Source: a virus
Taxonomy: Duplodnaviria; Heunggongvirae; Uroviricota; Caudoviricetes
Virus record (IMG/VR): IMGVR_UViG_2703718798_000005
DNA length: 49,477 nucleotides
Direction: 5' to 3' (one strand)
Part shown: positions 1,067 through 45,441 of the stretch, in pieces
How positions within the stretch are numbered: the stretch's first letter is position 1
How the letters are laid out: the number at the start of each line of letters is the position of its first letter
The notes under the pieces: model-generated
Seen by the model: only the letters and a program-made list of their open reading frames with translations
The model's database searches: none
What the model was told of the DNA's origin: nothing
Program-made: the position numbers and the translations under genes

Positions 1067-3172
1067 ATGAGTGAAGGACCAGGCGGGCCACAGGGAGCGA
1101 CCGCAGGCGGTACGCTGGCAATGCGAATGCTGTCACAGCAGGCGATGGTCGCCAGCCAGATGAAACGGGCAGCCAACGACAAAGCCATTGCACAGATGTT
1201 GGCATCAAAAAAGTCTGGCTCCCCCGCCGCCAGGCTGGGCGATGAAATTCAGCACAAGAGTTTTTTGGGGGCGCTGGCAGGGGCCGTGCTGGGGGCGATA
1301 GTGACCATCGCAGAAGGTTGCCTGATTATGGCCGCCTGTGCCACCGGCCCTTATGCGCTGGTTCTGGTGCCTGCGCTGATGTATGCCAGCTATAAGGCGA
1401 GTGATTATGTGGAGGAGAAACAGAACCAGCTTGAATCATGGATAAACAGCTTTTGTGACACGGACGGCGCCATCAATACCGGTTCTGAAAACGTAAAAAT
1501 TAACGGAAAGCCAGCAGCCCGTGCAGCCGTCACCCTTCCCCCTCCTCCCCCACCTGGAGCAATACCTGAAGTCCCACAGGGGGAACCCTCATGGGGTGAT
1601 ATTGCCACTGACCTGCTTGAATCGGCAGCGGAAAAAGCAGTACCACTGGCGAAGGCCTGGGGGAACGCTGTTATCACCCTGACGGACAGCAATGCCAGTT
1701 TTATGGATCGCGTCAGTGCAGGCGCATCGCTTCTGTTTCCCAGCGGCCCGGTATTAATGGAATTTGCCACGATGGTGGGCGGGCGTGGCGAAATCAAAAA
1801 AGATGTGGATTTCCCGGAAGCCGGTGAGGACACGGCGCTCTGCGACAAGGAGAACAAACCACCGAGGATAGCCCAGGGCAGCAGCAACGTCTTTATCAAC
1901 AATCAGCCTGCCGCGCGCCAGGGGGACAAACTGGAGTGCAGTGCGGCGATCGTGGAAGGTTCGCCGGACGTCTTTATTGGGGGTGAGCAGGTCACCTATC
2001 TGGATATCCAGCCGGAGTTCCCGCCATGGCAGAGAATGATCCTGGGAGGAATAACGATAGCCAGCTATCTTCTGCCGCCAGCAGGACTGCTGGGAAAACT
2101 GGGGAATCTGGCGAAACTGGGCAAACTGGGAAACCTGCTGGGGAAAAGCGGAAAGCTGCTGGGCGCAAAACTCGGCGCGTTGCTGGGGAAAACAGGTAAG
2201 TCGTTAAAAAGTATTGCCAATAAAGTCATCAGATGGGTAACAGATCCTGTCGATCCGGTAACCGGCGCGTACTGCGACGAACGTACCGACTTCACCCTGG
2301 GCCAGACCCTCCCCCTCTCCTTCACCCGTTTCCACAGTTCGGTACTGCCACTGCATGGCCTGACGGGCGTGGGCTGGAGTGACTCCTGGAGCGAATACGC
2401 CTGGGTGCGTGAACAGGGAAACCGGGTGGATATCATCAGCCTGGGAGCCACGCTGAACTTCGCCTTCGACGGTGAAAGTGATACGGCGGTTAACCCGTAT
2501 CACGCCCAGTACATTCTGCGCCGCCGTGATGATTATCTGGAGCTGTTCGACAGGGATGCACTGAGCAGCCGCTTCTTTTATGACGCCTTTCCGGGAATGC
2601 GTCTGCGCCACCCGGTGACTGACGATACCAGCGATGACCGCCTGGCACACAGCCCCGCAGACCGGATGTACATGCTGGGCGGGATGAGCGACACCGCCAG
2701 CAACCGCATCACGTTTGAGCGCGACAGCCAGTACCGGATCACGGGTGTCAGTCACACCGACGGGATCCGGCTTAAACTGACGTACCACGCCAGCGGCTAC
2801 CTGAAAGCCATTCACCGCACGGATAACGGCATACAGACGCTGGCGACCTACGAACAGGATGCGCGGGGGCGGCTGACAGAAGCGGATGCGCGGCTGGACT
2901 ACCACCTGTTTTATGAGTACGACGCTGCGGACCGGATCATCCGCTGGTCCGATAACGACCAGACGTGGAGCCGTTTCACCTACGATGAACAGGGCCGGTG
3001 CGTGACCGTCACCGGGGCGGAGGGCTATTACAACGCCACGCTGGACTATGGGGACGGCTGCACCACCGTGACGGACGGCAAGGGCGCTCACCGTTATTAC
3101 TATGATCCTGACGGCAATATTCTGCGGGAAGAAGCGCCGGACGGCAGCACCACCACGTATGAATGGGTGTAA
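1067..3172 (+). pseudogene. rhs: rhs T6SS effector, 5' portion (prePAAR motif, TM helices, PAAR domain, first Rhs repeats), truncated by prophage insertion
   Basis: 701 aa ORF: AARLGDEIQH prePAAR-type motif, hydrophobic helices, PAAR-like segment (NVFINNQPAARQGDKLECSAAIVEGSPDVFIGG), YDxxGR-type repeats; stops two codons into the prophage left end; reading frame continues at about 42661. Confidence 0.8.
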
Positions 3173-3345
3173 CCAGGTGAATCATTTGATACCAACGAGG
3201 GTTTTAGTGAAAGGAGGTGAAATCACCTGTAAGATACTGAAATAAAACAGGTGATGCTAATGCGAGCGCGGAAAGTCTATTTGATACCGATTGTGCAATA
3301 ATTAGTCGTTTATTCTAAAGTCGGCAACACTTTTGATACTACGGA
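3168..3345. repeat. Prophage left end (attL-like) with three TTTGATAC(C/T) repeats, candidate transposase-binding sites
   Basis: TTTGATACC at about 3195, TTTGATACC at about 3281, TTTGATACT at about 3334; the reverse complement GGTATCAAA / AGTATCAAA recurs three times at the right end. Confidence 0.5.
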
Positions 3346-3439
3346 TTGACGCTTAAAATGGCTTTAAAAAGGCTTAAAACGCTTTTCTCCAGATTGTCTT
3401 TAAAGGAGTGTACCACAGCACAAAATTTGCACCACTCCC

Positions 3440-3994
3440 TTACGCGCTGGTCTTTTTATAGGTTACATTGAAGTGATCAACCTTAGTCTTACAAAACTCG
3501 CAAATCTCTCTAATCTGTTCATCAGATAAATCATTTAAGCTTAAGGCTAGTGCTCTACGTTGACCGTGTAAGCTATGTAATTCCTGAATATCATTATCTA
3601 AAAGTATGGTTAAAAAATCTGCGCCTTTGCGGCCTAATTTCCTAGATAATTCATCAAGTTCTGTTGGTTCTAGAGAGCTCCATATAGCGCTAATCGTCTG
3701 GTAATCTCGTTCATCTGAAGACGCAATTGTCGGCCGAGTACTTTCTTGTGGCTGTATTGTTTTCGTGCCCAATATGAGCCATTCCAACGATACGTTTTCT
3801 ACCTTGCAAATATTGCTAACTACTTTTAGGCCAGGTGTGGTCCCTTTCTCAAAGTAGTTATTCAATGTTGAGTATGACAACCCCCAATCGATAGCTGCTT
3901 GCCGCATACTTCTGCTGCCGATTAGCTGCCTGATCCTGTCCTGGATACTTTCTTTTCCCTCTTCGACAAAAGAAAAATCTTGTTCCTGTCTCAT
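3440..3994 (-). CDS. Prophage repressor (Mu c-like), putative
   Basis: 184 aa leftward ORF at the left end, divergent from ner; HTH-like segment (LSYSTLNNYFEKG); positional equivalence to the Mu repressor. Confidence 0.55.
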   Translation of the reverse strand: MRQEQDFSFVEEGKESIQDRIRQLIGSRSMRQAAIDWGLSYSTLNNYFEKGTTPGLKVVSNICKVENVSLEWLILGTKTIQPQESTRPTIASSDERDYQTISAIWSSLEPTELDELSRKLGRKGADFLTILLDNDIQELHSLHGQRRALALSLNDLSDEQIREICEFCKTKVDHFNVTYKKTSA

Positions 3995-4170: not shown

Positions 4171-4401
4171 ATGGCGAGAAATGAAGTTAAGCCTGATTGG
4201 CATCCTCAAAGAATCTTGGGGGAAGTCAGAGCCAGAGAAGGAAGTATGAGGGCGCTGGCCCGTAAAGCTGGTGTAGGCCAGAACAACCTGTATAACGCGG
4301 TATACCGCCATGTTCCCAAGTATGAGGGAATTATTGCGGAATGCCTGGGTGTTCCACCCGAGGAGATTTGGCCCAGCCGCTACATTCGTAAGGTCGCGTA
4401 A
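4171..4401 (+). CDS. ner: Ner-like DNA-binding early regulator
   Basis: 76 aa; DWHPQRI ... IWPSRY pattern recalled from Mu Ner-family proteins; first gene of the rightward early operon. Confidence 0.75.
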   Translation: MARNEVKPDWHPQRILGEVRAREGSMRALARKAGVGQNNLYNAVYRHVPKYEGIIAECLGVPPEEIWPSRYIRKVA

Positions 4402-4403
4402 TT

Positions 4404-6491
4404 ATGTTTGCTTCAGTTAAAGAGCTGGTTGGATTACCGGGAATGCCGGGAACGGAGCAAGGCGTCCGCTATTCAATCAGGAAGTATGCAACCAGCGAAA
4501 CCAGCAGACGCCGCCAGGAAGGCACTAAAGGTTTTGAATACAGCATCGACTGTTTACCTGAAGTGACGCAGCAGGCATTACGTGAACGCTACGCCCTGCA
4601 ACTGATGACGCAAAAAGCCGACGAATCACCGGCTCCGGTGGTGACAAAGGCCAGACGCTCGCCTGCAGTGGTTGATGCGGTGGAGGCATATCGCGGATCA
4701 CCACAACTGATGGTCGAACGCCTTAATGCCCTGACTGAAAACCAGCGCCAGGTGGCTGATGCACGAATCGCGATCGTCAGCGAAGTGATGAAAGTCGCGC
4801 AACAACCCGGTTTCAGCTGCGCGAAGGCTATCCGGTTTATCGTTGACAACCTGGCACGTTCGCAACTGGACGAGCGCATTGTGGCAATGGTTGAGACGGC
4901 GAACGCCAAAAAGGGAAACAGCCGCGCGTTGAGTGAAATCACGCTGAAACGCTGGATTGCAGCCTTTAACAAGGCGCAGAACGCCGCCGAACGCCTGCTT
5001 TTGCTGGCACCGGGTAAGCGCCAGGAAATAAAAGCCGAAGATATTAACTGGCTGCCCGAGTTTCTGGCGCAGTATCGCCAGTCAAACGGTCGACCAATGA
5101 CCGAGGCTTACGAGGATTTTGTCGCTGAATGGCAGCACCGGCACGCTGATGAGCCTTATATGCTCGATATCATGCCCTCTTATGACACCATTCGCCGCGC
5201 AATGAAGAAACTGCCGGAAGTGGTGAAACAGAAAGGCCGGGTGACCGGCAGTGAATACCGTCAGCTTGAGGGATTCACGCGCCGCGACTGGTCCAGAATG
5301 CCGGTGAATTATGTCTGGATTGGTGACGGTCACGGCATGAAGCTGAAATGCGCGCACCCGGTTCACGGGCGGCCATTTGCACCGGAAGTAACCTTTGTTA
5401 TCGATGGCGGCACGCGCTTTGTGGTGGGCTGGAGCCTTGACCTGGCTGAAAATGTTTTCGCCGTAGCGGGTGCCATACAGCACGGCATTCGCCATCACGG
5501 CAAACCGTTTCTGTATTACTCGGATAACGGTTCCGGGGAAACCGCCGACATCCTGGATAAAGAAGTTGTGGGGATCCTGCCGCGACTGGGGATTAATCAC
5601 CCAACCGGGATTGCCGGTAATCCGCAGGGGCGAGGCATTATCGAACGGCTTAACCGCACATTACCGATGCGCATAGCCCGTAAATACCGCACCTATTTCG
5701 GGAAAGGTGCAGATCGCGAGACGTTACGCAAAACCAACCGCGATTTACGCTCGGCATTCACTGCCCTGCAACAGGACAAACGGCTGAACGCCCGGCAGCA
5801 GTCAGCGATGCGTGATTTACCGTCCTGGTCTGAACTGATTGATGCCATTCGTGATGGTGTTGAGTGGTACAACAACCGGCCGCACGATGAATTACCCATG
5901 AAGCCGAACGGTAAACATTACAGCCCGGCGGAGTTCAGAAAAAAACGCCTGGCGGAAGAGGACACGGAAATTGAATGGCTGTCCGATGTTGAGCTGCGGG
6001 ATATGTTCCGGCCGATGGTGAAGCGCCCTGTAAGACGCTGTGAAATACGCTGGCTGAATAATATTTACTACGCGCCGGAGCTGCGTGACGAGCATGGCCG
6101 CAAGGTGCTTATCAGCTATGACATTCATGATGCTGAGCGAATTACCGTACGCAGACTGGATGGCAGCGTGATTTGCGAGGCGGTATGGGACGGCAATAAA
6201 CGCGAAGCCTTCCCGGTCAGCGCGGAATACTACAAACAGCAGCAACGCCTTAAAGGCATGCGTAAACGCGCAGAGGAAAAAATCCGTGATGCCGAGGATG
6301 AGGTGGTCAACGTGCTGGAGCACAAACCGCAGGAGCCCTGGCTGGAAAACATCTATCGCCCGGTAGGTAATACGGTGGCCGTTCAGCAACCTGCCGTTGA
6401 TGATGAACCTGATGAAGAATACGAGCGTAATTTCCAGCGGGGATTGCAGCTGCTGGAAGCGAAATTAAAAGAAAATGACCCGCTGGCCTGA
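4404..6491 (+). CDS. Mu-type DDE transposase (MuA-like)
   Basis: 695 aa; candidate DDE triad in WIGDGHGMK, YYSDNGSGE and RGIIERLNRT contexts; follows ner as in Mu. Confidence 0.9.
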   Translation: MFASVKELVGLPGMPGTEQGVRYSIRKYATSETSRRRQEGTKGFEYSIDCLPEVTQQALRERYALQLMTQKADESPAPVVTKARRSPAVVDAVEAYRGSPQLMVERLNALTENQRQVADARIAIVSEVMKVAQQPGFSCAKAIRFIVDNLARSQLDERIVAMVETANAKKGNSRALSEITLKRWIAAFNKAQNAAERLLLLAPGKRQEIKAEDINWLPEFLAQYRQSNGRPMTEAYEDFVAEWQHRHADEPYMLDIMPSYDTIRRAMKKLPEVVKQKGRVTGSEYRQLEGFTRRDWSRMPVNYVWIGDGHGMKLKCAHPVHGRPFAPEVTFVIDGGTRFVVGWSLDLAENVFAVAGAIQHGIRHHGKPFLYYSDNGSGETADILDKEVVGILPRLGINHPTGIAGNPQGRGIIERLNRTLPMRIARKYRTYFGKGADRETLRKTNRDLRSAFTALQQDKRLNARQQSAMRDLPSWSELIDAIRDGVEWYNNRPHDELPMKPNGKHYSPAEFRKKRLAEEDTEIEWLSDVELRDMFRPMVKRPVRRCEIRWLNNIYYAPELRDEHGRKVLISYDIHDAERITVRRLDGSVICEAVWDGNKREAFPVSAEYYKQQQRLKGMRKRAEEKIRDAEDEVVNVLEHKPQEPWLENIYRPVGNTVAVQQPAVDDEPDEEYERNFQRGLQLLEAKLKENDPLA

Positions 6492-6566: not shown

Positions 6567-7499
6567 ATGACCGATATTAACGATGTAATCAAGACCATTG
6601 ATGAACTTATTGATGGCGGCGTACTGACACAGTATGCCATCGCCAGAGAGGCGGGAATTTCCGACGGCACATTATCGGCTTTCCGTAAGGGAAAATATAA
6701 AGGCGATAACGCTGCTGTGGCTGCTTCCCTGCGTTCCTGGTATGAGAACTGGAATAAACAAAGCGCACTGCCGGAACCGCCGCAGTTTGTGGAAACGCAG
6801 ACAGTCCAGGAGCTGCGCGCGCTGTTTCAGGCGGTTCGCCTGATGGGCTGTATTAACGTCATTGTGGGCGTGCCGGGTGTGGGTAAAACGGCCACCGCCC
6901 GTAATTACTGCCAGGAGCAACCAAACACCTGGATGATTACCCTGTCACCCGCGCACTCCAGCGTCACGGAGTGTTTGCTGGAGCTGGCCGATGCGCTGGG
7001 GATTGATTACACCCGCGCGAACAAAGGGGCATTATCCCGCGCCATCCGCCGCCGTCTGATGGGAACGCGTGGACTGGTGATTGTGGATGAGGCGGATCAT
7101 CTTGGTATTGACGGTCTGGAGCAACTCCGGGCAATTCAGGACGCCACGGGGATCGGGATGGTGCTTATTGGTAACCCGCGCGGACTGTTTAAAGGTGGAC
7201 GCCGCGCCTTTGATGATTTATCGCGCCTGTTCAGCCGTCTTGCCCGTACAAAACAACTTCGCAAGGCCAAAAAGGCAGATGTGCTGGCCATTGCCAGGGC
7301 ATGGGGTATCAGTGGTGAGGCAGAGCTGGTCGTGATGCAGGCTATCGCTGAAAAGCCCGGTGCGTTACGTGTTCTTACACATACGCTTAACCAGGCGTGG
7401 CTCACAGCCAGCGGTGAAGGCGCGGCGCTGACAGAAAAACATATTAATGCGGCCTTTAAAGAGGTTTATACCAACCCTGAATTACTCTCACAGGTGTGA
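6567..7499 (+). CDS. MuB-like ATP-dependent target DNA activator
   Basis: 310 aa; Walker A GVPGVGKT; directly downstream of the transposase. Confidence 0.85.
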   Translation: MTDINDVIKTIDELIDGGVLTQYAIAREAGISDGTLSAFRKGKYKGDNAAVAASLRSWYENWNKQSALPEPPQFVETQTVQELRALFQAVRLMGCINVIVGVPGVGKTATARNYCQEQPNTWMITLSPAHSSVTECLLELADALGIDYTRANKGALSRAIRRRLMGTRGLVIVDEADHLGIDGLEQLRAIQDATGIGMVLIGNPRGLFKGGRRAFDDLSRLFSRLARTKQLRKAKKADVLAIARAWGISGEAELVVMQAIAEKPGALRVLTHTLNQAWLTASGEGAALTEKHINAAFKEVYTNPELLSQV

Positions 7500-7735: not shown

Positions 7736-8155
7736 ATGAATACGCAGATACAGCAGGAAATCAATGTTCTCCACAGTTTTCGTGCGTTTAACAACAATGA
7801 CTGTGAGGTTCGTGATTATATCTTTGAATTGATGAACGGTGACGGTGTGTGTTTTCTGTTTATCGACCTGTATCTATGGTATGCAGACCAGCAGTGTGAA
7901 TCTGTCCGGCAGCGTTTTTATGTTGGATACTTTAACCATCATGTCTGGGAAAGCCTGCGCTTTGGTTTTCTGATCCAGGGGGATTATCGCCAGGGGGGGC
8001 GACACGGTTACTCCATCCTTCGGGCAATCATGCGTGGCGAAACCCGAAAAATTCCGGGGATGGGTGAGGTTGATCGGAGCCTCCTGCTGGAACTGGCTGC
8101 ATCGCGCATGAATCCATTACTGATACAACCGGAGTTCACCTATGAATTTGTTTGA
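7736..8155 (+). CDS. Hypothetical early protein
   Basis: 139 aa ORF with RBS (GAGG) 7 nt upstream; no recognisable motif. Confidence 0.4.
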   Translation: MNTQIQQEINVLHSFRAFNNNDCEVRDYIFELMNGDGVCFLFIDLYLWYADQQCESVRQRFYVGYFNHHVWESLRFGFLIQGDYRQGGRHGYSILRAIMRGETRKIPGMGEVDRSLLLELAASRMNPLLIQPEFTYEFV

Positions 8156-9030: not shown

Positions 9031-9561
9031 ATGGTTAAACGTGTTACAAAATTAAAGGCCGCAGCCGAGGCCGCACCACAGACCCGCGAAGAGGTCAGCC
9101 GCGATATCCGCACCCTGGGCGATATTCAGCGAGAGGCGCTGCGCCTGGAAACGGCAATGAATGATGAAGTGGCAGAAATCACCGCCCGTTATACGCCGCA
9201 GATTGAAAACCTTAAAAAAGAAATCAAAGTGCTTTTTAAGGGGATTCATGACTGGTGTAAAACCAACCGCAATGAGCTGACGAACGGCGGCGAAACCAAA
9301 ACTGCCAATCTGACCACCGGAACGGTGTCATGGCGGCTGGGAAATCCATCATGCAGCGTCAGTCGTGATGTGGAAGGTGTGATTGAAATGCTGCGTCGTA
9401 TGGGGCTTGAGCGCTTCATCCGCACGAAAGAGGAAGTGAATAAGCAAGCTGTCCTGGCGGAGCCGGATGCGGTGAAAGGGGTTGCTGGTATTAAGGTGAA
9501 TAAAGGTGCTGAAAGTTTTCATGTCGAGCCTTTTGAACAGGACGCCGGACTGAATAAATAA
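9031..9561 (+). CDS. gam: Gam-like host-nuclease inhibitor (DNA end-binding)
   Basis: Start at internal ATG 9031; DIRTLGDIQREALRLETAMNDEVAEI and ELTNGGETKTANLTTGTVSWR match the Mu Gam family as recalled. Confidence 0.75.
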   Translation: MVKRVTKLKAAAEAAPQTREEVSRDIRTLGDIQREALRLETAMNDEVAEITARYTPQIENLKKEIKVLFKGIHDWCKTNRNELTNGGETKTANLTTGTVSWRLGNPSCSVSRDVEGVIEMLRRMGLERFIRTKEEVNKQAVLAEPDAVKGVAGIKVNKGAESFHVEPFEQDAGLNK

Positions 9562-9658
9562 CACCGCATTAAATCTTTAAATATCACTTCGTTTTAATTA
9601 TGGCGCTCGCGTCAGGGGACTGCCTGCGCCTGTAAACTGAAAATAAGGAACAGGAAAT

Positions 9659-10201
9659 ATGGCATATTTTTATTTCAAATTAGACCGTGTACAGACAAAT
9701 AAATATTTCACCAAATATCAACAGACTGTTTTACCGCTACGCAACAGTATTCTTCGGGCATTACTGAAAAATACAGGCGCTGCCGGATTGCGCTTAAAGC
9801 CGTTCGCCATGGACGTAATCAGTGAGTTTTATTTTTCTGGTTCTCTGCCTGCGGGCTGGCGTAAGCGCGATGATGTGGCTTTTATCGGGGGCGGACCGTG
9901 CTTTATTGCCAGACCTGATGAGTCATGCCCTGAAGGTCCGGCGATTGCCGCAATGGTTGAAGCCGCTGAACGCGAGTTAAGAAAGCGTCCTGATTTCCTT
10001 GTCTGGCTCTGTGAAAAGCTGGGGGTAATGAGAATCCCCTCCATGTTTAACACGGACTCCTGGTGGACCCCGTCACTCTCCCGTGATGCCCTGTGCGTGG
10101 TGTTTAAAGTAGGCGCTTATGGCAGGGAAATAAACGGGTGTATTCCTGAAGAATGCCAGGAAATTAAACATTCTGAATATGTGGCGCTGACGGAGGAATA
10201 A
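9659..10201 (+). CDS. Hypothetical early/middle protein
   Basis: 180 aa ORF, RBS AAGGAACAGG upstream. Confidence 0.45.
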   Translation: MAYFYFKLDRVQTNKYFTKYQQTVLPLRNSILRALLKNTGAAGLRLKPFAMDVISEFYFSGSLPAGWRKRDDVAFIGGGPCFIARPDESCPEGPAIAAMVEAAERELRKRPDFLVWLCEKLGVMRIPSMFNTDSWWTPSLSRDALCVVFKVGAYGREINGCIPEECQEIKHSEYVALTEE

Positions 10202-10204
10202 TTC

Positions 10205-10738
10205 ATGATTGATGCAAAAGTACTTGAAGGGGTTAAAAACTGGCTGAGTATTTACGGGCGTCTGACCTGCAGCATTCTGGCTGAAAAAATGAATATGCCG
10301 CCATCCTCGATGGTTTATTTTCTGCGTGATGCGGTCGATGCCGGGGTGCTGACGGAATGTAACGGTTTTTATGATATTCCGCGTCCCCGCCCGGTGCAGC
10401 CGGTTCGTCGCAAATGCAGCCAGGAAGGTGCGGCTGATGATGTTCAGTGGTGCAGCTTCAGAAAATCCCTGCCGTGGATTGAGGGGCATGATATTCCGTC
10501 AATGGCGTGGGAATTTGCTCAGGGCGTTCTGACCTGTGAAACCGTTTATGTGGTGGCTGAAGTTGATGAGCAGGCCATGAAAGAAGGTGTGCCCCAGTTT
10601 GTTATGGCGTATATCGACATCCGTCTGGGCGTCATTATCTGCGGTTTAAGCGGCTGGAATATCACCTCGCGCGTTCTGCGTTACCTGATTGTTGACCGGA
10701 CGGCCGCGCCTGCCGGGATATCTGCGGAGGTGGCGTAA
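10205..10738 (+). CDS. Hypothetical early/middle protein
   Basis: 177 aa ORF, tightly packed with neighbours. Confidence 0.45.
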   Translation: MIDAKVLEGVKNWLSIYGRLTCSILAEKMNMPPSSMVYFLRDAVDAGVLTECNGFYDIPRPRPVQPVRRKCSQEGAADDVQWCSFRKSLPWIEGHDIPSMAWEFAQGVLTCETVYVVAEVDEQAMKEGVPQFVMAYIDIRLGVIICGLSGWNITSRVLRYLIVDRTAAPAGISAEVA

Positions 10739-11253
10739 TGTTCTTTAAAACATCAAACCCTTCCGCGCTGGCCGCGTGGCAAAAATATCAGCAGGACTGC
10801 CAGAAAGTTAAGGATGAGGCAAAACGCCTTGAGGCCGTGCTGAATGTTGCGTGCCGGTCGGTATTTGTATCCGGTATCAGTGGCTTTTGTTTTAAAGGGC
10901 TGCGCTTTATGGATGACAAATATCCTTTTCATCGCGACTTATGGCGAAAACCGACTGCGTCGAATGGCTGGAGCTGCACACCGCGCACATCACGTATTCC
11001 CAAAGCCCTGCGCGTTGCCTCTGACGAACTTAACAGTCTGTGGCGTGAATATTCGCCCGTCACGTATGCCAGAACCGATGCCCTGTTGTTCTGGCTGGGC
11101 ATTGACTTTTCAGCAATATTGCATGGTCCCGTGAAGTGGTTCTGCGTTGACGATGTTATTTACCTTCAGTGCGAAGATGATTCCGCAAAACGGAAAATGA
11201 CCGAAATTCTGTCTGATGAGTTTTATGCTGCTGAAAAGCGAGTCAGGGGGTGA
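10738..11253 (+). CDS. Hypothetical early/middle protein
   Basis: 171 aa ORF, start overlaps the preceding stop. Confidence 0.45.
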   Translation: MFFKTSNPSALAAWQKYQQDCQKVKDEAKRLEAVLNVACRSVFVSGISGFCFKGLRFMDDKYPFHRDLWRKPTASNGWSCTPRTSRIPKALRVASDELNSLWREYSPVTYARTDALLFWLGIDFSAILHGPVKWFCVDDVIYLQCEDDSAKRKMTEILSDEFYAAEKRVRG

Positions 11254-11256
11254 TGT

Positions 11257-11808
11257 ATGATGATTTTACAACCCATGGGGCGAAAAGGCCGTGCACCCGC
11301 TCATGTCCGTGCGTGGACACCTGAAGAAGATGCACTGCTGATTGCGCTTTATCCATCCACCCCGGTTAAGGATATTGCTGTCAGGATAAAAAGAAGTTTC
11401 TGGGGTGTACATCACCGGATTGTTTTATTACGCGGTACTTACCCGGAGTTGCTCAAATGCAAACGTCCAAGATTTAAACATGATGAAGATAAATTTATCC
11501 GAAAAAATGCCAGAACAATGACCGGTAAGCAAATAGGAGAATATCTGGGGCGAGACCGGGATTCTGTCCACAATCGGGCGCGATATATTGGCGTAAGCAT
11601 GAAAAAATACGGAGAATTGCTGCCCTTCACCCGTATACCTGATGATGATGTTCGTCTTATTCGTGAATTACGGGATGCTGAATCACCACGACGTCTTACC
11701 TTCCGGGAAATAGGCGAGAAATTTGAATTATCCGAGAGTACGGTGAATTTTATTTATCACCATCGCCGGACTGCTGAAGATGTTGTATTACGGGAGTTAA
11801 TGCCATGA
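11257..11808 (+). CDS. Hypothetical protein with Myb/SANT-like and HTH-like segments (possible DNA-binding)
   Basis: 183 aa; WTPEEDALLIALY and LSESTVNFIYHHRR segments suggest DNA binding; inference only. Confidence 0.4.
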   Translation: MMILQPMGRKGRAPAHVRAWTPEEDALLIALYPSTPVKDIAVRIKRSFWGVHHRIVLLRGTYPELLKCKRPRFKHDEDKFIRKNARTMTGKQIGEYLGRDRDSVHNRARYIGVSMKKYGELLPFTRIPDDDVRLIRELRDAESPRRLTFREIGEKFELSESTVNFIYHHRRTAEDVVLRELMP

Positions 11809-12116
11809 TAACGACATTATTTGTTGAATCAGACGAGCCTCTGGTATGTGCCGCCGGAATGTCGGTTTGTGGCGGAACGCTGACCGGTGTTTATTTCGGG
11901 GATTTGCGCGGTTATCCCTGGCATTCACTGGATGACGCATTTCCGCCTGATATGGAGGCTGTCGTGCTGATTGTTCAGTATGGTGACCAACAGGAACTGC
12001 GCATCGGCCATATGGGGTATGAAGGCTTTTTTATTGATGAAGAAACCGGAGCCTGCCTTGAAGATGAGGACGGACAGGTGACGCACTGGTGCCATATTTC
12101 AGCTTTACCGGAATGA
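11805..12116 (+). CDS. Hypothetical protein
   Basis: 103 aa acidic ORF, overlapping start. Confidence 0.4.
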   Translation: MITTLFVESDEPLVCAAGMSVCGGTLTGVYFGDLRGYPWHSLDDAFPPDMEAVVLIVQYGDQQELRIGHMGYEGFFIDEETGACLEDEDGQVTHWCHISALPE

Positions 12117-12481: not shown

Positions 12482-12493
12482 ACAGGCAGGTGA

Positions 12494-12829: not shown

Positions 12830-13019
12830 TCTACCCGCTGGATGGGCGCGGCCACTAATGGCCAGGAAGCATCATTTTTTTAAAACAGGCGAAAATATCA
12901 GTATATGTGGACGGTGGTTATATCTGGCTCATAATCGCGAGCCGGATACATTTGAAAGCCCTGATGACTGTGCCGAATGCCGCAGAAGAGTGAATAAGGA
13001 GAAAGATAATGGACAATAG
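12822..13019 (+). CDS. Small hypothetical protein with Cys pairs
   Basis: 65 aa; ICGRW ... CAEC could form a small zinc-binding site; weak. Confidence 0.3.
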   Translation: MNSLPAGWARPLMARKHHFFKTGENISICGRWLYLAHNREPDTFESPDDCAECRRRVNKEKDNGQ

Positions 13020-35689: not shown

Positions 35690-36600
35690 TGTTCCATGTT
35701 GATAATAATTCCGGCGTGGCGAATATGCCTGAACTGGCTCCGGCGCAGAGTAATACCACCACCTGGTTTACCGAAGGTGACGGACAAAAAGGTATCAGCT
35801 GGATTGGTCAGGACTGGCTGAATATTCTCCAGGCCGAACTGCTGAATATTCTGGCTGAAGCCAGTATTCAGCCGGATAAGGCGCAGTTAAACCAGCTTAC
35901 GCTGTCCATTAAAGCCATTATCGCTGCGAATGCCTTTTCCCGGAAAAACAACCTGAAAGAAATTGCTGATGCCGGTGCGGAAGCCCAGCGTCTGGCCCGT
36001 GGTTATCTTGGTCTGGGGACGCTTGCCACAAAAAACAGTCTTGGTCCCGCTGACGTTAATGCCCTGGCGAAGGATCAGAACCTTGCCGACCTGGAGAATG
36101 CGGAAACCGCCCGTAATAATCTGGATGTTTACAGCAGGAGCGAAGGTGATAACCGTTACCTGCGCAGGGACCAGAATGGCGCGGATATCCAGGACAAAGG
36201 AACCTTTATCGATAACCTCGGTTTACGGGAAACGGTAAATAAGGCTGCTGATGCCCTGCCATCGGCTGGAACCGCCGTGGCAGCAAACAGACTCGCCACC
36301 CCAAGAAATATTAATGGTGTTCCTTTTGACGGAACGCTGGATATCAACATCACGTCAGGAATGACGCAGTCAACCGCAGATGGCCGGTATGTACAGAATG
36401 TTCAGCTTGGAGCACAGAGCTATCATTCACCCGGAGGCAATGAAATGTCATGGAATTACAGCGCACCTTCCGGTTGTATGCTTTCCGGTATTAACGTGCA
36501 GGAAACCGGCTCCCGGTCTGCGGACAATATCGGTGGGGTCTATTATCGCCCGGTTCAGATTTATATTAATAATACCTGGAGAACGGTAAGTTCAGTGTAA
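35689..36600 (+). CDS. Tail fibre protein S (constant part plus currently fused variable tip)
   Basis: Start at ATG 35689 overlapping the preceding stop; crosses the left recombination site at about 36206-36231; last roughly 120 aa lie inside the invertible segment. Confidence 0.8.
   Translation: MFHVDNNSGVANMPELAPAQSNTTTWFTEGDGQKGISWIGQDWLNILQAELLNILAEASIQPDKAQLNQLTLSIKAIIAANAFSRKNNLKEIADAGAEAQRLARGYLGLGTLATKNSLGPADVNALAKDQNLADLENAETARNNLDVYSRSEGDNRYLRRDQNGADIQDKGTFIDNLGLRETVNKAADALPSAGTAVAANRLATPRNINGVPFDGTLDINITSGMTQSTADGRYVQNVQLGAQSYHSPGGNEMSWNYSAPSGCMLSGINVQETGSRSADNIGGVYYRPVQIYINNTWRTVSSV
36206..36231. repeat. Left recombination site (gix-like) inside the tail fibre gene
   Basis: TTATCGATAACCTCGGTTTACGGGAA, close to the Mu gix sequence as recalled. 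Confidence 0.7.
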
Positions 36601-37277: not shown

Positions 37278-37649
37278 TTAAATACTTGCAGCGGATACCC
37301 AATGCCCATTAATACAATATTGTATCTGTCTGTAATAAACACGGTCATCACCACCACGCATTTCCCAGTCTCCGTCAGTCTTAAAACCGGTAATCACATT
37401 TCCTGATGACAGGGAGTAATTATATTCCAGTCCGCCGCTTAATGCCTGCGCTCCCAGTCTTACCCCTGTAACATAACGCTGATTGGCCGTTGATTCCGGC
37501 ATTCCTGACGTAATGTTTATATCCTGCGTGCCGTCAAAGGCGACACCATTGATTCTGCGGGCATTTGCCAGCCTGCTTGCTGCAACAGCCGTACCGTTTG
37601 ATGGCAGGGCATTCGCGGCCCTGTTTACCGTATCCCGTAAACCGAGGTT
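37278..37649 (-). CDS. Alternative tail-fibre C-terminal segment (promoterless until inversion)
   Basis: Minus-strand frame reads NLGLRDTVNRAANALPSNGTAVAASRLA..., parallel to NLGLRETVNKAADALPSAGTAVAANRLA... of the expressed tip; a stop lies immediately outside the right recombination site. Confidence 0.7.
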   Translation of the reverse strand, partial: NLGLRDTVNRAANALPSNGTAVAASRLANARRINGVAFDGTQDINITSGMPESTANQRYVTGVRLGAQALSGGLEYNYSLSSGNVITGFKTDGDWEMRGGDDRVYYRQIQYCINGHWVSAASI

Positions 37650-37711: not shown

Positions 37712-38272
37712 ATGCTGATTGGCTATATACGCGTATCAACAAATGACCAGAACACCGGTTTACAAAGAAATGCGCTGGAATGTGCAGGATGTGAGCAGAT
37801 TTTTGAAGACAAAATGAGTGGTAAAACGACACAGCGGCCGGGACTGAAGCGGGCACTGAAGAAACTAAAACCCGGTGACACGCTGATGGTCTGGAAACTG
37901 GACAGGCTGGGGCGCAGTATGCGCCACCTTGTTGCGCTGACAGATGAATTACAGCAACAGGGGATAAATTTTCGTAGTCTTACTGACAACATTGATACGT
38001 CAACCCCCATGGGGCGCTTCTTTTTTCACATAATGGGTGCGCTGGCAGAAATGGAGCGTGAATTAATTGTCGAACGGACACGGGCTGGTCTTGCAGCTGC
38101 CCGTGAAAGGGGACGAACCGGCGGCAGACCCCGCCGTCTCACGCAGGAACAATACGAGCAGGTCGGGCGTTTACTGGCCGGGGGTGTCAGTCGAAGACAG
38201 GTGGCACTTATTTTTGATATCGGTCTTTCAACCCTTTATCGTTATTATCCTGCGAGCGTTTCGGAAAAATAA
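37712..38272 (+). CDS. gin: Serine DNA invertase (Gin/Hin/Cin family)
   Basis: 186 aa; N-terminal MLIGYIRVSTNDQN catalytic-Ser motif; C-terminal HTH; adjacent to the invertible segment. Confidence 0.9.
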   Translation: MLIGYIRVSTNDQNTGLQRNALECAGCEQIFEDKMSGKTTQRPGLKRALKKLKPGDTLMVWKLDRLGRSMRHLVALTDELQQQGINFRSLTDNIDTSTPMGRFFFHIMGALAEMERELIVERTRAGLAAARERGRTGGRPRRLTQEQYEQVGRLLAGGVSRRQVALIFDIGLSTLYRYYPASVSEK

Positions 38273-38371: not shown

Positions 38372-40411
38372 ATGACGTCCAAATGGGTTCAACTATCATC
38401 AATGCCCGGAAACTTTACTGTTAAAGTTTCCGGTGGTACAGCGGCATTTCTTGAGGCTCCCTTTCCTCCGGCCGAAACAAAAGGAGGAATGACATTTGCT
38501 GACTGTCTCATCAGTTTTAATACACGGGATTGCCTGTGGGTAAGGCCAGTATCCGGTGATCCGAGTGTGGAAATTACCGGAGCGGGTATTGGTGCGGTCA
38601 TTCCGTTAAGTGCTGATGTTGCCGGTACTGCTGAACCGTCAGACTGGGATAATGCTGAAACACATACCCGTCCGTCAGGAAATGAAACTGCTTCCAGCTC
38701 CCCTTCCTGGTATTACGTGGTGGTTCTTGCTGGTCAGTCAAACGGTATGGCTTACGGTGAAGGTCTGCCACTGCCGGAGACATATGACCGCCCCGAACCG
38801 CGTATTATGCAGTTAGCCCGTCGCAGTACAGTCACGCCGGGAGGTAAAGCCTGTCAGTATAACGACATCATTCTGGCCGACCACTGTCTGCATGATGTGC
38901 AGGATATGAGTGGAAAAAATCACCCGAAAGCGGATGTGGCTAAAGGGCAATATGGCACCGTGGGTCAGGGGCTTCACATTGCCAAAAAACTGCTGCCGTT
39001 TATTCCGGCAGATGCGGGGATTCTGCTGGTTCCCTGCTGCCGTGGTGGTTCTGCATTCACGGCGGGTGCTGACGGCACGTACAGTGACAGCACGGGTGCT
39101 TCAGAGGACTCAGCCCGCTGGGGTGTGGATAAGCCGCTGTATAAGGACTTAATCAGCCGGACAAAAGCGGCACTGGCGAAGAACCCGAAAAACCGCCTGC
39201 TTGCTGTGGTGTGGATGCAGGGCGAGTTTGATATTGATGCGAAGCCGACGGAGCATTCTGCGCTGTTTCTGGCGATGGTGGAAAAATTCCGCGCAGACCT
39301 GGCTGAACAGGCGGAACAGTGTACCGGTGGCAGTGCTGCTGGCGTTCCGTGGATTTGTGGCGATACCACGTATTTCTGGAAACAGAAAAATGAACCAGCA
39401 TACCAGGCAATCTATGGCGGCTACAAAAACAAAACAGATAAAAACATTCATTTCGTTCCATTAATGACAGATGAAAATGGCGTGAATGTACCCACCAACA
39501 ATCCGGCAGAAGACCCGGATATTGAATCCATTGGTTATTACGGCTCAACGTGGCGTAACAGTGCCGCTACCTGGACATCTGCGGACCGGGCCAGCCATTT
39601 CAGTGCCTGGGCGCGCCGGGGTATTATTTCTGACCGTCTGGCCACGGCTGTTCTGACTCATGCAGGGCGAACCACAGTAAAAGCCGATGTTCCATCTTCT
39701 GAAACTGAAGCACCAGTGCCGTCACCTTCAGAAACTGAAGCAGTAACCACAACACTGCTGTCTTACCGTGTCAGTGAGTCAGAAGGAAATCTGAAAGCCC
39801 AGGGCTGGGAGCCGGCTGGCGGTAAAGCTGAAATTATCAGTGATGCAGGAGGCACAGGTGGTAAGGCAATGAAACTGACCAAGGAAACAGGTAAATCATC
39901 CTGGTATCTGGATCATGATGCCGGTACTGGTGCTGAACTGCTGAAAAATGGTGGTTTAATCAGTTGTCGTTTTAAAGTACCTGGCGACCTGGTGGCAAAC
40001 CAGTATGTCATGGCGCTTTACTGGCCGGTTTCCTCTCTGCCGCAGGGTGTCACCCTGACAGGGGATGCAGGGAATAATCTGCTGGCATCGTTCTACATCC
40101 AGACAGACGCAAAAGACCTGAATGTGATGTACCACAATGCAAAAGTGGCAACAAATAACCAGAAACTGGGAACCTTTGGTGCATTTGATAATGAATGGCA
40201 TACGCTGGCCTTCCGTTTTGCAGGAAATAACAGCCTTCAGGTTATTCCGGTTATTGATGGTCAGGATGGTGCCGCGTTTACCCTGACGCAGTCACCAGTA
40301 GGAACTTTCCCGGTGGACAAACTCCGCGTAACGGATATCACCAAAAATGCAACTTACCCGGTGCTGATTGACAGCATTGTGGTGGAAGTGAAAAAAGCGG
40401 TAACAGAATAA
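38372..40411 (+). CDS. Cargo protein: SASA/SGNH-type esterase domain (sialate O-acetylesterase-like, NanS-p-like) with a lectin-like C-terminal domain
   Basis: 679 aa; YYVVVLAGQSNGMAYGEG block resembles the GQSN motif of DUF303/SASA esterases; C-terminal 200 aa may be a ConA-like beta-sandwich; no counterpart at this position in Mu. Confidence 0.55.
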   Translation: MTSKWVQLSSMPGNFTVKVSGGTAAFLEAPFPPAETKGGMTFADCLISFNTRDCLWVRPVSGDPSVEITGAGIGAVIPLSADVAGTAEPSDWDNAETHTRPSGNETASSSPSWYYVVVLAGQSNGMAYGEGLPLPETYDRPEPRIMQLARRSTVTPGGKACQYNDIILADHCLHDVQDMSGKNHPKADVAKGQYGTVGQGLHIAKKLLPFIPADAGILLVPCCRGGSAFTAGADGTYSDSTGASEDSARWGVDKPLYKDLISRTKAALAKNPKNRLLAVVWMQGEFDIDAKPTEHSALFLAMVEKFRADLAEQAEQCTGGSAAGVPWICGDTTYFWKQKNEPAYQAIYGGYKNKTDKNIHFVPLMTDENGVNVPTNNPAEDPDIESIGYYGSTWRNSAATWTSADRASHFSAWARRGIISDRLATAVLTHAGRTTVKADVPSSETEAPVPSPSETEAVTTTLLSYRVSESEGNLKAQGWEPAGGKAEIISDAGGTGGKAMKLTKETGKSSWYLDHDAGTGAELLKNGGLISCRFKVPGDLVANQYVMALYWPVSSLPQGVTLTGDAGNNLLASFYIQTDAKDLNVMYHNAKVATNNQKLGTFGAFDNEWHTLAFRFAGNNSLQVIPVIDGQDGAAFTLTQSPVGTFPVDKLRVTDITKNATYPVLIDSIVVEVKKAVTE

Positions 40412-41021: not shown

Positions 41022-41569
41022 CAATACCGACCGGCAGGTTTCCCTGCCGGGTGAGTTTGTTAATGCACGTTTTGTGTATTTTCCCTCCTGGGAGAACAGG
41101 CAGGACATATCAGCATCCTGAAACAGGAAGCATTTTTGGGTTTGTATGTCTTGCCATTTTGAGATCGAGAACGGCGATAGATGAGCTGTAAGGGAGTCTT
41201 ACAGGCAGGGCAAACAGGCTCTTTCATCCATGATAAAGATCTCCTTTTTATGCATCTCTGCTTTACAGGAGACTGGGGAATATCATAGGATACGCCACGA
41301 GCTCGAAGTAAAGCATTGATGCAAAATTGTCTAAATCGGCCCAGAATAGTTCGCGCTATCTGGGTCGCTCTTTATGTATGTAGTATCCCATTGATTTGAA
41401 ACATACTACATATACGCGCGATCCTACCTTCACTATATAAAAAGTCAATAAAATGATCATTTTATGATCGTTTTCACCACCTAACTCTTCGTTTTCTTTA
41501 AGTAAATAATCACCTACCTGAATCATTGTTGATGACTTTTCAATCTATTTGTTGTATCAATTAAACAAA

Positions 41570-41640
41570 TCGAATCGATCGTTTTTGTCGATCGATTGCA
41601 TGAGAAAGGCATCAACAACAAAGCAGGAGGTTATGCGGCC
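41570..41640 (+). promoter_or_regulatory. com-mom promoter-proximal region with paired GATC sites
   Basis: GATC at about 41577 and 41590 within ATCGAATCGATCGTTTTTGTCGATCGATTG; RBS AGGAGG before com. Confidence 0.4.
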
Positions 41641-41841
41641 ATGTATCGAAACATACGGTGCCGACACTGCAATAAGCTACTGGCACGGGCCAGTTTCAGT
41701 TATCTGGAAGTAAAATGTCCGCGCTGTAAAACCCTCAATCAAATCACATCTCCGAGCGCCACAGAGCACCCCACATACACAAGGAAATCCTGTCGTGGGG
41801 AACAGAAAGCAAGTCACATCCCGAATCATCAGCACGCCTGA
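41641..41841 (+). CDS. com: Com-like zinc-finger translational activator of mom
   Basis: Start moved to ATG 41641; [14 protein letters not shown]...[11 protein letters not shown] four-Cys pattern like Mu Com; overlaps the mom start. Confidence 0.75.
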
Positions 41842-42532
41842 ACTTATTCGCTATAACGACAATATCGTTGGTTATGGCTCCCGTGAGTTGCGGGTTGAGA
41901 CAATAAGTTGCTGGCTGGCCAGACTGGTCATCGTCAATAAACATTACAGCCACCGTTTCGTAAATAACTCCTACCTTCATCTGGGCATATTTTCAGAACG
42001 GGAACTTGTTGGCGTAATGCAATGGGGTTACGCCCTTAACCCAAACAGTGGTGCACGCGTCGTAACGGGTACGCAGAACCGAGAATATATGGAGCTTAAC
42101 CGGCTATGGCTGCATGACTGTATGCCGAGAAACTCCGAATCAAGGGCAATCAGTTACGCGCTCAAGCTAATCAGGCAGCTTTATCCGCAGGTACAGTGGG
42201 TTCAGTCGTTTGCAGATGAGCGTTGTGGCTGTCTTGGTGTCGTGTATCAGGCAAGCAATTTTGATTATGTAGGCAGCCATGAATCAATATTCTATGAACT
42301 TGATGGCGAGTGGTATCACGAGATTTGCAGGAATGCCATTAAACGAGGCGGACAACGAGGTGAACATCTGAGGGCTAATATTGACAGAGCCAATGTTCAT
42401 AAGTTCCGACAGTTTCGTTACATCCGGTTTCTGAACAAGAGGGCCAAAAAACGCCTCAACACAAAGCTATTCAAAGTCCAGCCTTACCCAAAACCACAAA
42501 CAGTTAAAACTGGTTTGAAAGAGAGTGAATGA
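41795..42532 (+). CDS. mom: Mom-like DNA modification protein
   Basis: 245 aa; last gene at the right end and overlapped by com, as in Mu; start codon uncertain. Confidence 0.75.
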
Positions 42533-42584
42533 GCGCTTAAAAACTCATTCTAAAACTCAAAAGAAAAGCGCCGATTTAGTATCA

Positions 42585-42659
42585 AATAAGTTGCGTATCG
42601 GCGTTTTTCAGCAGTATCAAATGAAATGCAAATCGGTATCAAAAAAATCGCCGCGCTAT
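42585..42659. repeat. Prophage right end (attR-like) with three inverted TTTGATAC repeats
   Basis: AGTATCAAA at about 42588, AGTATCAAA at about 42613, GGTATCAAA at about 42636. Confidence 0.5.
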
Positions 42660-42660
42660 A

Positions 42661-45441
42661 TGGGATGAATACCATCACCTGCTGGCCCGCCACTCCCCTG
42701 CCGGGCGGGTGGAGAAATTTGAATACAACGCCGCACATGGTCAGTTAAGCTGTTATACGGCGGCAGACGGCGCGGAGTGGCAGTACTGCTATGATGAGCG
42801 CGGCCTGCTCAGCAACATCACCGACCCTGCCGGGCAGACGTGGACGCAGCAGTGTGATGAACGCGGCCTGCCGGTGAGTCTGGTGTCGCCACAGGGCGAA
42901 GAGACCCGGCTGGCATACACCGCACAGGGGCTGCTGTCGGGAATATTCCGCCAGGATGAACGGCACCTGGGCATAGAGTACGACCACCACAACCGGCCGG
43001 AAACACTCACCGACGTGATGGGCCGTGAACACCACACCGAATACAGTGGTCACGACCTGCCGGTGAAGATGCGCGGCCCCGGCGGTTAGTCAGTGCGGTT
43101 GCAGTGGCAGCAGCACCATAAACTGAGCGGCCTTGAGCGGGCAGGAACCGGCGCAGAAGGATTCCGCTATGACCGCCACGGCAACCTGCTGGCGTACACG
43201 GACGGTAACGGCGTTGTCTGGACAATGGAATACGGCCCGTTTGATTTGCCGGTGGCGCGAACGGACGGTGAAGGCCACCGCTGGCAGTACCGCTACGATA
43301 AAGACACGCTGCAACTGACAGAAGTCATTAACCCGCAGGGCGAGTCTTATCTTTATATTCTGGACAACTGTGGCCGGGTGACGGAAGAACGTGACTGGGG
43401 CGGCGTGGTCTGTCGTTACCGCTATGACGCCGATGGCCTGTGTACCGCCAGGGTTAACGGCCTGGAGGAAACTATCCTCTACAGCCGGGACGCCGCAGGC
43501 CGCCTGGCAGAAATCATCACGCCGGAAGGCAAAACGCAGTATGCGTATGACAAATCCGGCAGGCTGACGGGTATCTTCAGCCCGGACGGCACATCACAGC
43601 GCACCGGCTATGATGAACGCGGGCGGGTGAATGTCACCACTCAGGGCCGACGGGCCATTGAATACCACTACCCCGACGAACACACCGTCATCCGCTGTAT
43701 CCTGCCACCGGAAGATGAACGCGACAGACACCCCGATGAATCCCTGCTGAAAACCACGTACCGTTATAACGCCGCCGGAGAACTGACGGAGGTCATTCTG
43801 CCGGGGGATGAGACGCTGACGTTCAGCCGTGATGAGGCGGGACGTGAAGTGCTCCGGCACAGTAACCGGGGTTTTGCCTGTGAGCAGGGCTGGAATGCAG
43901 CCAGCCAGCTTGTCACCCAGCGCGCCGGATTTTTCCCGGAGGAAACCACATGGGGCGGGCTGCTCCCCTCACTGGTACGGGAGTACCGTTACGACAGCGC
44001 GGGCAATGTGTCGGCTGTCACCAGCCGGGAAGATTACGGACGGGAAACACGGCGGGAGTACCGGCTGGACCGGAACGGTCAGGTCACGGCGGTGACAGCC
44101 TCAGGCACCGGGCTGGGCTATGGCGAAGGCGATGAGTCCTATGGCTATGACAGTTGTGGCTACCTGAAGGCGCAGTCTGCGGGCAGGCACCGGATAAGTG
44201 AAGAGACTGACCAGTATGCCGGAGGCCACCGGCTGAAACAGGCCGGAAACACGCAGTATGACTATGACGCCGCAGGCCGGATGGTCAGCCGCACAAAACA
44301 CCGTGACGGCTACCGCCCGGAAACAGAGCGGTTCCGGTGGGACAGCCGGGACCAGCTGACCGGGTATTGCAGCGCACAGGGTGAACAGTGGGAATACCGC
44401 CACGACGCCAGCGGCAGACGAACAGAGAAACGCTGTGACAGGAAGAAAATCCGCTTCACGTACCTGTGGGATGGCGACAGTATTGCGGAAATCCGGGAAT
44501 ACCGCGATGATGAACTGTACAGCGTACGGCACCTGGTGTTTAACGGCTTTGAGCTGATAAGCCAGCAGTGCAGCCGGGTACGGCAGCCGCACCCGTCCGT
44601 GGCCCCGCAGTGGGTGACGCGAACGAATCATGCGGTGAGCGACCTGACGGGCCGCCCGCTGATGCTCTTTAACAGTGAAGGTAAAACCGTCTGGCGGCCG
44701 GGGCAGACCAGCCTGTGGGGGCTGGCACTCAGCCTGCCCGCAGACACCGGCTACCCGGACCCGCGCGGGGAGCGGGACCCGGAAGCGGACCCCGGCCTGC
44801 TGTATGCGGGACAGTGGCAGGATGCAGAATCGGGGCTGTGCTATAACCGGTTCCGGTACTACGAGCCGGAAACCGGGATGTACCTGGTGAGTGATCCGCT
44901 GGGGTTGCAGGGAGGGGAGCAGACTTACCGGTATGTGCCGAATCCTTGTGGGTATATCGATCCTTTGGGGCTGGCTATATGTCAGTTAGCCCGCTGGACG
45001 AAATGGGGGAGTGAGCAAAGCAACATATCTGATGTTTTGAACTCATTAGGGAATAGAGCACTTAAATATGCTAATGGTGATTGGATAAAATCAGAGGCTG
45101 CATTCAATAAATACATAAACATGATAAATAAAAGACTAGAATTAACAGGTAGTAAATTTAGAGTTGAGATTCAACCAGCCATAAAAAATGGAGAGCGAGT
45201 TCCTGCGACAACGAATGGACCATTTAAAGTAAATGGTAAGTGGACATCCGGCACTCATTATACAGGTGGTTCCAAACGTCTAGATGCCGGTATTATTGAT
45301 ATCACATCTCCTACAAACCAATATGGATTACATCCAGTTATTGAAGGATTTGATATAACACTTAATAAAACAAAACCATCAGCAGTGGATATATATTCAG
45401 ATGTGTTTGGTGGGATTGATATTAACGACATTCGGTTATAA
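42661..45441 (+). pseudogene. rhs: rhs effector, 3' portion (Rhs repeat core and C-terminal toxin tip), with in-frame TAG at 43087-43089
   Basis: Frame continues the 5' fragment; ORF track splits it into 42709-43089 and 43093-45441 around a TAG; DPLGL-type demarcation (YIDPLGLA) at about 44960; low-GC C-terminal tip of about 150 aa. Confidence 0.8.

Follow-up and report, generated by a model that had tools for sequence, protein, structure and literature searches.

A 39,493-bp Mu-like transposable prophage splits rhs, a type VI secretion system (T6SS) effector gene, in a vgrG-eag-rhs island of Escherichia coli. The prophage occupies positions 3168-42660 (+) of IMG/VR record IMGVR_UViG_2703718798_000005, a complete contig of 49,477 bp that is referred to here as the window. 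We consider it very probable that this prophage, a member of the Sp18 family, transposed into rhs and thereby knocked the effector out. The contig is filed as 'viral', yet 3.2 kb and 6.8 kb of it are host chromosome; it represents a prophage within a bacterial chromosome and not virion DNA. The island is located between cusS and nfrB, with vgrG, a DcrB-like eag and rhs followed by immunity genes and orphan cassettes, and in strain EDL933 the same locus has been named the vgrG-2 orphan locus (PMC12981562). An initial annotation of the window had described a Mu-type transposable prophage inside a T6SS rhs effector gene, and this description is borne out by the Mu-type proteins, by termini shared among 11 copies of the family and by two flanks that belong to one gene. 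The finding is real and its interpretation was largely right, with two factual corrections: the gene carries a nonsense codon in addition to the insertion, and the target-site duplication is 4 bp long with a right end in TA. The positions of all features are collected in Table 1.

At the left junction the rhs open reading frame (ORF; 1067-3172) reads ...DGSTTTYEW, after which the prophage end contributes GTG (Val) and TAA, while on the far side of the prophage the rhs frame is picked up again at position 42661 with WDEYHHLLARHSPAGRVEKFEYN. This agrees with the initial annotation, in which the ORF stopped at 3172 after ...TTTYEW and resumed at about 42661. Fusion of the flanks (3167 to 42665) gives ...TYEWDEYHH..., again as predicted, and uninterrupted rhs genes have this same sequence; the empty site across the fused gene reads TATGAATGGGATGAATAC. 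A 404-nt query spanning the fused flanks was matched end to end in 2,036 of the 5,426 complete E. coli genomes searched, at 95-99.8% identity, and each match was located within an annotated uninterrupted RHS gene. When the prophage and one repeat copy were removed, all 9,980 bp of the fused flank proved collinear with the locus of DSM 103246, with zero gaps and 98.3% identity. Such an alignment had been proposed as a check on the insertion, and the joined flanks matched the uninterrupted gene. DSM 103246 carries the identical set of toxin tip, immunity gene and orphan array next to an intact rhs of 1,625 codons. The event is a simple insertion at codon 700/701 of rhs, because the flanks are halves of a single gene, the 4-bp sequence TGGG is duplicated, and the ends of the inserted DNA are the exact termini of the family. 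Neither the left nor the right prophage-rhs junction was found in the complete E. coli genomes searched, and an exact-protein look-up of the truncated Rhs matched only the window's own contig (European Nucleotide Archive ERZ26120531:IMG_VR_364).

The termini were set from 11 copies of the family, namely the window and ten others, each at a different site. All copies start with TGTAACCAGG, finish with CGCCGCGCTATA (TGTAACC...CGCTATA) and are flanked on either side by an exact 4-bp repeat, and the terminal 26 nt on the left and 22 nt on the right are identical in Sakai Sp18 and the nine other copies. The inserted DNA starts with TG (TGTAACC...), as had been noted. The pentamer ATGGG is present in both flanks (3163-3167 and 42660-42664) and had been taken for a 5-bp target-site duplication; the pentamer is real, but the duplication is the 4-bp TGGG, and the element itself ends with the A at 42660. 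This base is counted as phage because 11 of 11 copies end in ...CGCTATA with exact 4-bp repeats, and because only then does the repeat TTTGATAC have the same offset, 18, at both termini. That a fifth base also matches in the window is a coincidence with a chance of 1 in 4. Immediately left of the 4-bp repeat, the ten copies in which that base was read have A, G, C, A, G, T, T, T, T and G, and a 5-bp duplication was rejected since this neighbour differs between copies. Shifted ends, with the element starting at GTAACC or ending at CGCTAT, were rejected as well, since they give unequal repeats across copies. The depositors of LC727881 and LC727895 also annotated a 4-bp 'duplication due to insertion of Mu'.

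Mu-like phages usually have TG-CA termini, with the TA-TA ends of Leptospira prophages as an exception, and duplicate 5 bp (Mu) or 6 bp (B3) of their target (PMC8705779). The Sp18 family is mildly atypical in both respects: the duplication is 4 bp, and the left end is TG and the right end TA, in all 11 copies. Each prophage end contains three copies of TTTGATAC, present in inverted orientation (GTATCAAA) at the right end, which are spread on the left and tight on the right and form putative transposase-binding sites. Their layout resembles that of L1-L3 and R1-R3 in Mu.

These junctions also bear on the question of assembly. The window is an assembled contig. Sp18-like phages, like rhs genes, occur as multi-copy repeats, which can confuse assemblers and could have produced a chimera joining a Mu-like phage to non-adjacent rhs fragments. 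We consider this artefact extremely improbable, as the junctions fall exactly at the family termini, the 4-bp duplication is there as expected, and the two flanks meet within one gene at a single nucleotide position, a pattern that would not come from a misjoin.

The initial annotation further held that in silico removal of the prophage restores one long ORF. It does not, because an in-frame TAG persists at 43087-43089. The corresponding codon 842 is CAG (Gln) in all three intact rhs genes that were aligned. When a 61-nt probe centred on the TAG was used, the segment was present in 2,023 genomes with zero exact matches, so that the nonsense allele is private to the window contig. Apart from this TAG, the healed gene contains no further stops or frameshifts; its protein differs from that of DSM 103246 at 29 positions, the stop included, and the distal 2.8 kb of rhs is 97-99% identical to intact alleles. 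As read from the contig, rhs is inactivated twice, once by the prophage and once by the TAG. If the TAG arose first, the prophage would later have entered a pseudogene, and the phage would not be the cause of the loss of function. The junction and the TAG are both private to this contig, no genome having either, which leaves room for that order of events. Set against this is the condition of the distal 2.8 kb, which at such identity and with no other stop or frameshift looks like the target of a recent single hit, before or after selection was relaxed. On balance we regard a nonsense mutation preceding the insertion as possible but rather unlikely.

In the preferred reading, in which transposition of the prophage knocked rhs out, the knockout would be permanent and not a switch, because Mu-type phages transpose without an excision system and because the TAG would persist. 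Prophages are known to disrupt genes with effects on fitness, and transposable phages of Pseudomonas are among the examples (PMC8284892); by analogy the window prophage might act as a reversible switch ('active lysogeny') in which induced excision restores a working rhs. We consider this very improbable here. The transposition module is of the Mu type, and the prophage genes include no integrase or excisionase, their sole recombinase being a Gin-type invertase; Sp18 DNA is not circularized (PMC2669165); and the gene for the DNA-circularization/baseplate-hub protein is frameshifted. Even precise removal would leave the TAG in place, so the target-restoring excision that defines active lysogeny is not what this locus offers.

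The two rhs fragments divide the elements of a T6SS effector between them. On the 5' fragment we found a prePAAR motif (AARLGDEIQH, aa 54-63), a hydrophobic transmembrane (TM) region (aa ~64-105), and a PAAR domain (aa 266-310). This fragment also encodes DUF6531 and the initial RHS repeats, with ~40% of the Rhs cage in all, before the protein ends in ...YEWV*. Its PAAR_motif match (E 1e-17), a prePAAR_I score of 26.5 bits (cut-off 25) and the Eag (DUF1795/DcrB) and VgrG genes directly upstream place it among the class I prePAAR proteins. The domain matches on the 5' and 3' fragments agree with the earlier statement that the insertion parts prePAAR, TM region and PAAR from the toxin and its immunity gene. 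Like class I prePAAR Rhs effectors (P. protegens RhsA, Photorhabdus Tre23, EagR-dependent), the locus has VgrG and Eag genes upstream, a prePAAR motif, one TM region and a PAAR domain, and it also shares with them the cage, the DPxGL-x18-DPxGL motif and a variable toxin followed by a small immunity ORF (PMC7773334, PMC8636562, PMC8765631). Unlike these effectors, the window gene is split by a 39.5 kb prophage, contains a nonsense codon and encodes a toxin of no described family. All elements of a continuous cage are present, with the frame broken at codon 701 (prophage) and codon 842 (TAG), and the window rhs reads as a pseudogene of the class I prePAAR Rhs effector family.

In related effectors the Rhs cage encloses its own toxin, and the N-terminal PAAR region together with the Eag chaperone mounts on VgrG (PMC8636562, PMC8765631, PMC7773334). 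Because an Rhs toxin must be one polypeptide with its cage and PAAR tip in order to mount on VgrG, splitting the polypeptide should put an end to delivery of the toxin. The sequence of events that we propose is that strand transfer by a DDE transposase with a 4-bp stagger inserted the prophage at rhs codon 700/701, that the toxin was thereby separated from its delivery module and would no longer be delivered, and that the distal fragment would now act as one more orphan rhs C-terminal (rhs-CT)/immunity cassette. None of the in-frame starts in the 3' fragment was found to follow a strong Shine-Dalgarno sequence. A promoter and terminator scan of 41500-46100 returned nothing above the shuffled expectation, and no consensus promoter was seen on the + strand.

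The toxin domain at the C-terminus was compared with Pfam, NCBIfam and PDB sequences, where only the end of the Rhs core was matched, and a word-indexed homologue search with the toxin gave a single Xenorhabdus match. Relatives of the domain, 54 in number, are located at the C-termini of large polymorphic toxins of up to 5,666 aa. An AlphaFold (AF2) model based on 21 relatives was confident (predicted local distance difference test score, pLDDT, 95), and the predicted fold weakly resembles restriction-endonuclease-like nucleases. Residues R102, D104, D127 and K134 are invariant or nearly so. They would be compatible with a nuclease of the PD-(D/E)xK type, which we regard as a lead and not as a result.

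The putative immunity ORF downstream of the toxin, whose role is assigned from its position only, is 100% identical to WP_000658319.1 of the intact locus, and the insertion has left it 39.5 kb from the upstream region of its operon. The initial annotation stated that immunity is retained. This holds for the ORF, which is intact; retained immunity as such is plausible, and a simple scan found no consensus promoter on the strand of the gene.

Several points weigh against the reading of rhs as an effector knocked out by the prophage. The window consists of one contig taken from a public assembly, and both junctions are read from that assembly only. The loss of delivery is deduced from the architecture of the split gene, and the T6SS core lies outside the window. 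Expression of the immunity gene is predicted from its ORF only, a consensus promoter not having been found on its strand. Finally, the data favour neither order of the insertion and the nonsense mutation.

Downstream of the immunity gene lies an orphan array (Table 1). In strain TB06051, the closest relative at the junction, the toxin/immunity module of the window is absent and the Tox-REase-3 module is fused to the main rhs instead (window 45889-49398 compared with 9450-12959 of the TB06051 locus). Together, the two loci make a textbook case of Rhs tip displacement into an orphan array. With its core homology, toxin and immunity gene, the severed rhs 3' fragment has the same structure as the natural orphan at 46035-47673, and it could recombine with other rhs cores. 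Unlike natural orphans, it arose from phage insertion and not from recombinational displacement, and it keeps far more of the core (2.3 kb).

Comparison with known prophages assigns the inserted element to the Sp18 family of E. coli O157:H7 Sakai. Its first 19.8 kb align over 83-90% of their length, at 96-97% identity, with the 'inserted Bacteriophage Mu-like phage' recorded in LC727881 and LC727895, and it matches gene by gene the copy in FRIK804, which has been reported as the homologue of Sp18 (PMC7430833). The relatives comprise Phi804-3 of FRIK804, the Mu-like phages of CC119 Shiga toxin-producing E. coli (STEC) and the 'Mu_JNE...' inserts in the Shiga toxin (Stx) phages LC727881 and LC727895; common to them and the window are the termini, the 4-bp duplication and the gene order, and most proteins are 90-100% identical. 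The window prophage differs from its relatives in its new site, the rhs of the vgrG-2 orphan island, and in a 4-bp frameshift deletion in the DNA-circularization/baseplate-hub gene. Compared with FRIK804, the repressor and ner-position genes are only 42-43% identical, and this divergence of the repressor (42%) predicts a different immunity type. An extra early ORF at 7736-8155 (139 aa) is absent from the FRIK804 copy and had no match in Pfam, PHROGs or PADLOC.

The Sp18-type family was detected at ~280 places in ~230 of the 5,426 complete genomes, in diverse genes and in other prophages. Many unrelated insertion sites and a short flanking duplication (11 of 11 copies) are what is expected of a Mu-like element. 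Consistent with this, previous studies reported that Sp18 DNA is packaged without being circularized and that insertion sites are strain-specific (PMC2669165, PMC7430833, PMC10132054), with intragenic or otherwise strain-specific positions such as sorM in Sakai, the prpD-prpE spacer in FRIK804 and Stx phages (PMC7430833, PMC10132054).

Independent Sp18-type insertions split a second vgrG-linked rhs, rhsD and the T6SS gene tssL. It could be argued that Sp18-type phages hit T6SS genes above chance, either through a target bias or through tolerated or favoured loss of effectors, and ~3 of the ~59 insertion events with a readable flanking gene did fall in T6SS targets, where ~0.7 were expected (P ~0.03, a weak hint obtained post hoc). 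This count was taken from hit tables after the fact, its lineages were not de-replicated, and the assumed target size of 1.2% of the genome is rough; moreover, most insertion sites are unrelated genes and other prophages. We regard a non-random outcome as improbable. It likewise seems improbable that STEC-like E. coli recurrently lose their T6SS weaponry through Sp18-type transposition, whether or not such a route is biased or selected. The atypical 4-bp stagger and TG...TA ends might accompany a distinct target preference.

What the insertion in the window does illustrate is one concrete route by which an effector of bacterial warfare would be lost: a transposable prophage cuts the toxin off from the module that delivers it, and a toxin/immunity cassette stays behind as an orphan. 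For the strain from which the window derives, this predicts the loss of one T6SS effector, with self-protection possibly kept. The site of insertion is new; the phage family and the random knocking out of genes by Mu-like phages were already known, and the biological news is therefore small. As with Mu-like phage insertions in Pseudomonas, which inactivate host genes for social or competitive behaviour (PMC8284892), the gene hit here serves competition; unlike those cases, the host and phage lineage are different and the window gives no evidence of selection or benefit. For annotators, Sp18-type prophages are best delimited as TGTAACC...CGCTATA with a 4-bp duplication, and not by the 5 bp and CA of Mu, and genes split by prophages should be checked for secondary lesions once they have been 'healed' in silico.

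The gene content of the prophage is that of a Mu-like phage. The repressor (on the - strand) is followed by a small helix-turn-helix (HTH) protein gene, A, B, Gam, Mor, lysis genes, terminase, a Mu-type portal and the gpT major head protein, and thereafter by contractile-tail genes, an invertible tail-fibre segment with Gin, a cargo gene combining a SASA esterase with DUF6645, com and mom. A transposase with Mu-type domains is thus paired with a MuB-type AAA+ partner, in a Mu-type gene order that extends to mor, the Gin-invertible tail-fibre segment and com/mom. With Mu (NC_000929) the prophage shares a lifestyle based on transposition, the order of repressor, small HTH, A, B, gam, mor, lysis, head, contractile tail, Gin segment and com/mom, and the presence of three transposase-site repeats per end, wide on the left and tight on the right. 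Nucleotide similarity to Mu, in contrast, is limited to short patches of 72-78%, and the window family has 4 bp and a right end in TA where Mu has 5 bp and CA. Matches of transposase A to the rve core were weak (E ~0.005-0.008); among solved structures, its match to MuA is confined to the N-terminal DNA-binding domain (1tns, E 4.5e-5), and its catalytic region scored no better for MuA than for retroviral integrases (E ~1e-4).

Since A, B and the end sequences are intact, the prophage can probably still transpose. Compared with three other copies, however, CGGT is deleted after nt 31296, which throws the DNA-circularization/baseplate-hub gene out of frame, and judging from this lesion the prophage is probably unable to make infectious particles.

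Table 1. Features of the window and insertion sites of the ten other Sp18-type copies (positions refer to the window unless an accession is given)
Feature	Position	Strand	Description
vgrG 3' end (T6SS spike)	1-558	+	Off left window edge; Pfam Gp5_trimer_C, E 1.2e-22; collinear with VgrG in L001 (TB06051) and L005
eag chaperone gene (DcrB/DUF1795)	586-1047	+	Pfam DcrB, E 1.4e-27; protein identical to intact locus L005
rhs 5' fragment	1067-3172	+	700 native codons, then prophage-derived Val and TAA
Left target-site duplication copy	3164-3167	.	TGGG; 4-bp pattern shared by 11/11 family copies
Sp18-type Mu-like transposable prophage	3168-42660	+	39,493 bp; ends TGTAACC...CGCTATA
Left end (attL-like)	3168-3339	+	TTTGATAC repeats at offsets 18, 113 and 165 from terminus
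Prophage repressor, CI-type HTH	3440-3994	-	Pfam Phage_CI_repr; phrog_3037; 42% identity to FRIK804 repressor
Small HTH DNA-binding protein	4171-4401	+	ner position of Mu; Pfam HTH_35, E 1e-21
Transposase A	4404-6491	+	Intact, 695 aa; Pfam Mu-transpos_C, HTH_Tnp_Mu_1; phrog_310, E 1e-211
MuB-type transposition ATPase	6567-7499	+	Intact; Pfam Phage-MuB_C, AAA_22; phrog_296
DNA-circularization/baseplate-hub homologue (gpN by analogy to Mu)	30569-31914	+	Probable pseudogene; 4-bp deletion
Gin-type serine invertase	37712-38272	+	Pfam Resolvase, HTH_7; adjoins invertible tail-fibre segment
com	41641-41841		5' of mom
mom (DNA modification)	41795-42532	+	Pfam Mom, E 2.6e-77
Right end (attR-like)	42579-42660	+	GTATCAAA (reverse complement of TTTGATAC) at offsets 18, 40 and 75; terminal base A = 42660
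Right target-site duplication copy	42661-42664	.	TGGG; as left copy
rhs 3' fragment	42665-45441	+	Remaining RHS cage repeats, DPLGL-x18-DPLGL (44893-44973), C-terminal toxin domain
Nonsense codon TAG	43087-43089	+	Codon 842 of healed rhs, in frame; CAG/Gln in intact alleles
C-terminal toxin domain	44974-45441	+	155 aa, 36.5% GC; no sequence-family match
Putative cognate immunity gene	45459-45866	+	135 aa, 29% GC, intact; Shine-Dalgarno-like AAGG upstream
Downstream orphan array	46035-48415	+	Modules intact
rhs core fragment fused to Tox-REase-3	46035-47306	+	
Putative immunity gene of Tox-REase-3 module	47308-47673	+	
SUKH-3 immunity gene	47948-48415	+	
Copy L003			lsrC
Copy L004			rihA
Copy L007	NZ_CP062717 2827318-2867875		Second, vgrG-linked rhs
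Copy L008			prpD-prpE spacer
Copy L009			DUF3748 gene
Copy L010			Sakai sorM
Copy L011			Stx phage
Copy L012			Stx phage
Copy L014	NZ_CM139231 589236-605704		rhsD
Copy L015	NZ_CP020106 4373088-4411865		tssL, T6SS core cluster, strain 13E0780

Some further observations concern the accessory regions of the prophage. The cargo protein encoded at 38372-40411, which combines a SASA domain of the sialate-O-acetylesterase type with DUF6645, is conserved in the Sp18-type copies examined, and PADLOC gave no defence-system match for the accessory ORFs of the prophage, this cargo gene included. ARAGORN found no tRNA, though RefSeq marks a 'tRNA-OTHER' in some copies. A hypothetical gene at 41063-41526 (-) is frameshifted; RefSeq flags the same in copies L003, L004, L007 and L015, while the gene is intact in FRIK804 and Sakai. 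Inverted repeats of 179 nt (36214-36392 and 37471-37649, 75% complementary) bracket the tail-fibre-assembly genes, and the orientation of the tail-fibre segment varies among copies, for example between L004 and L003.

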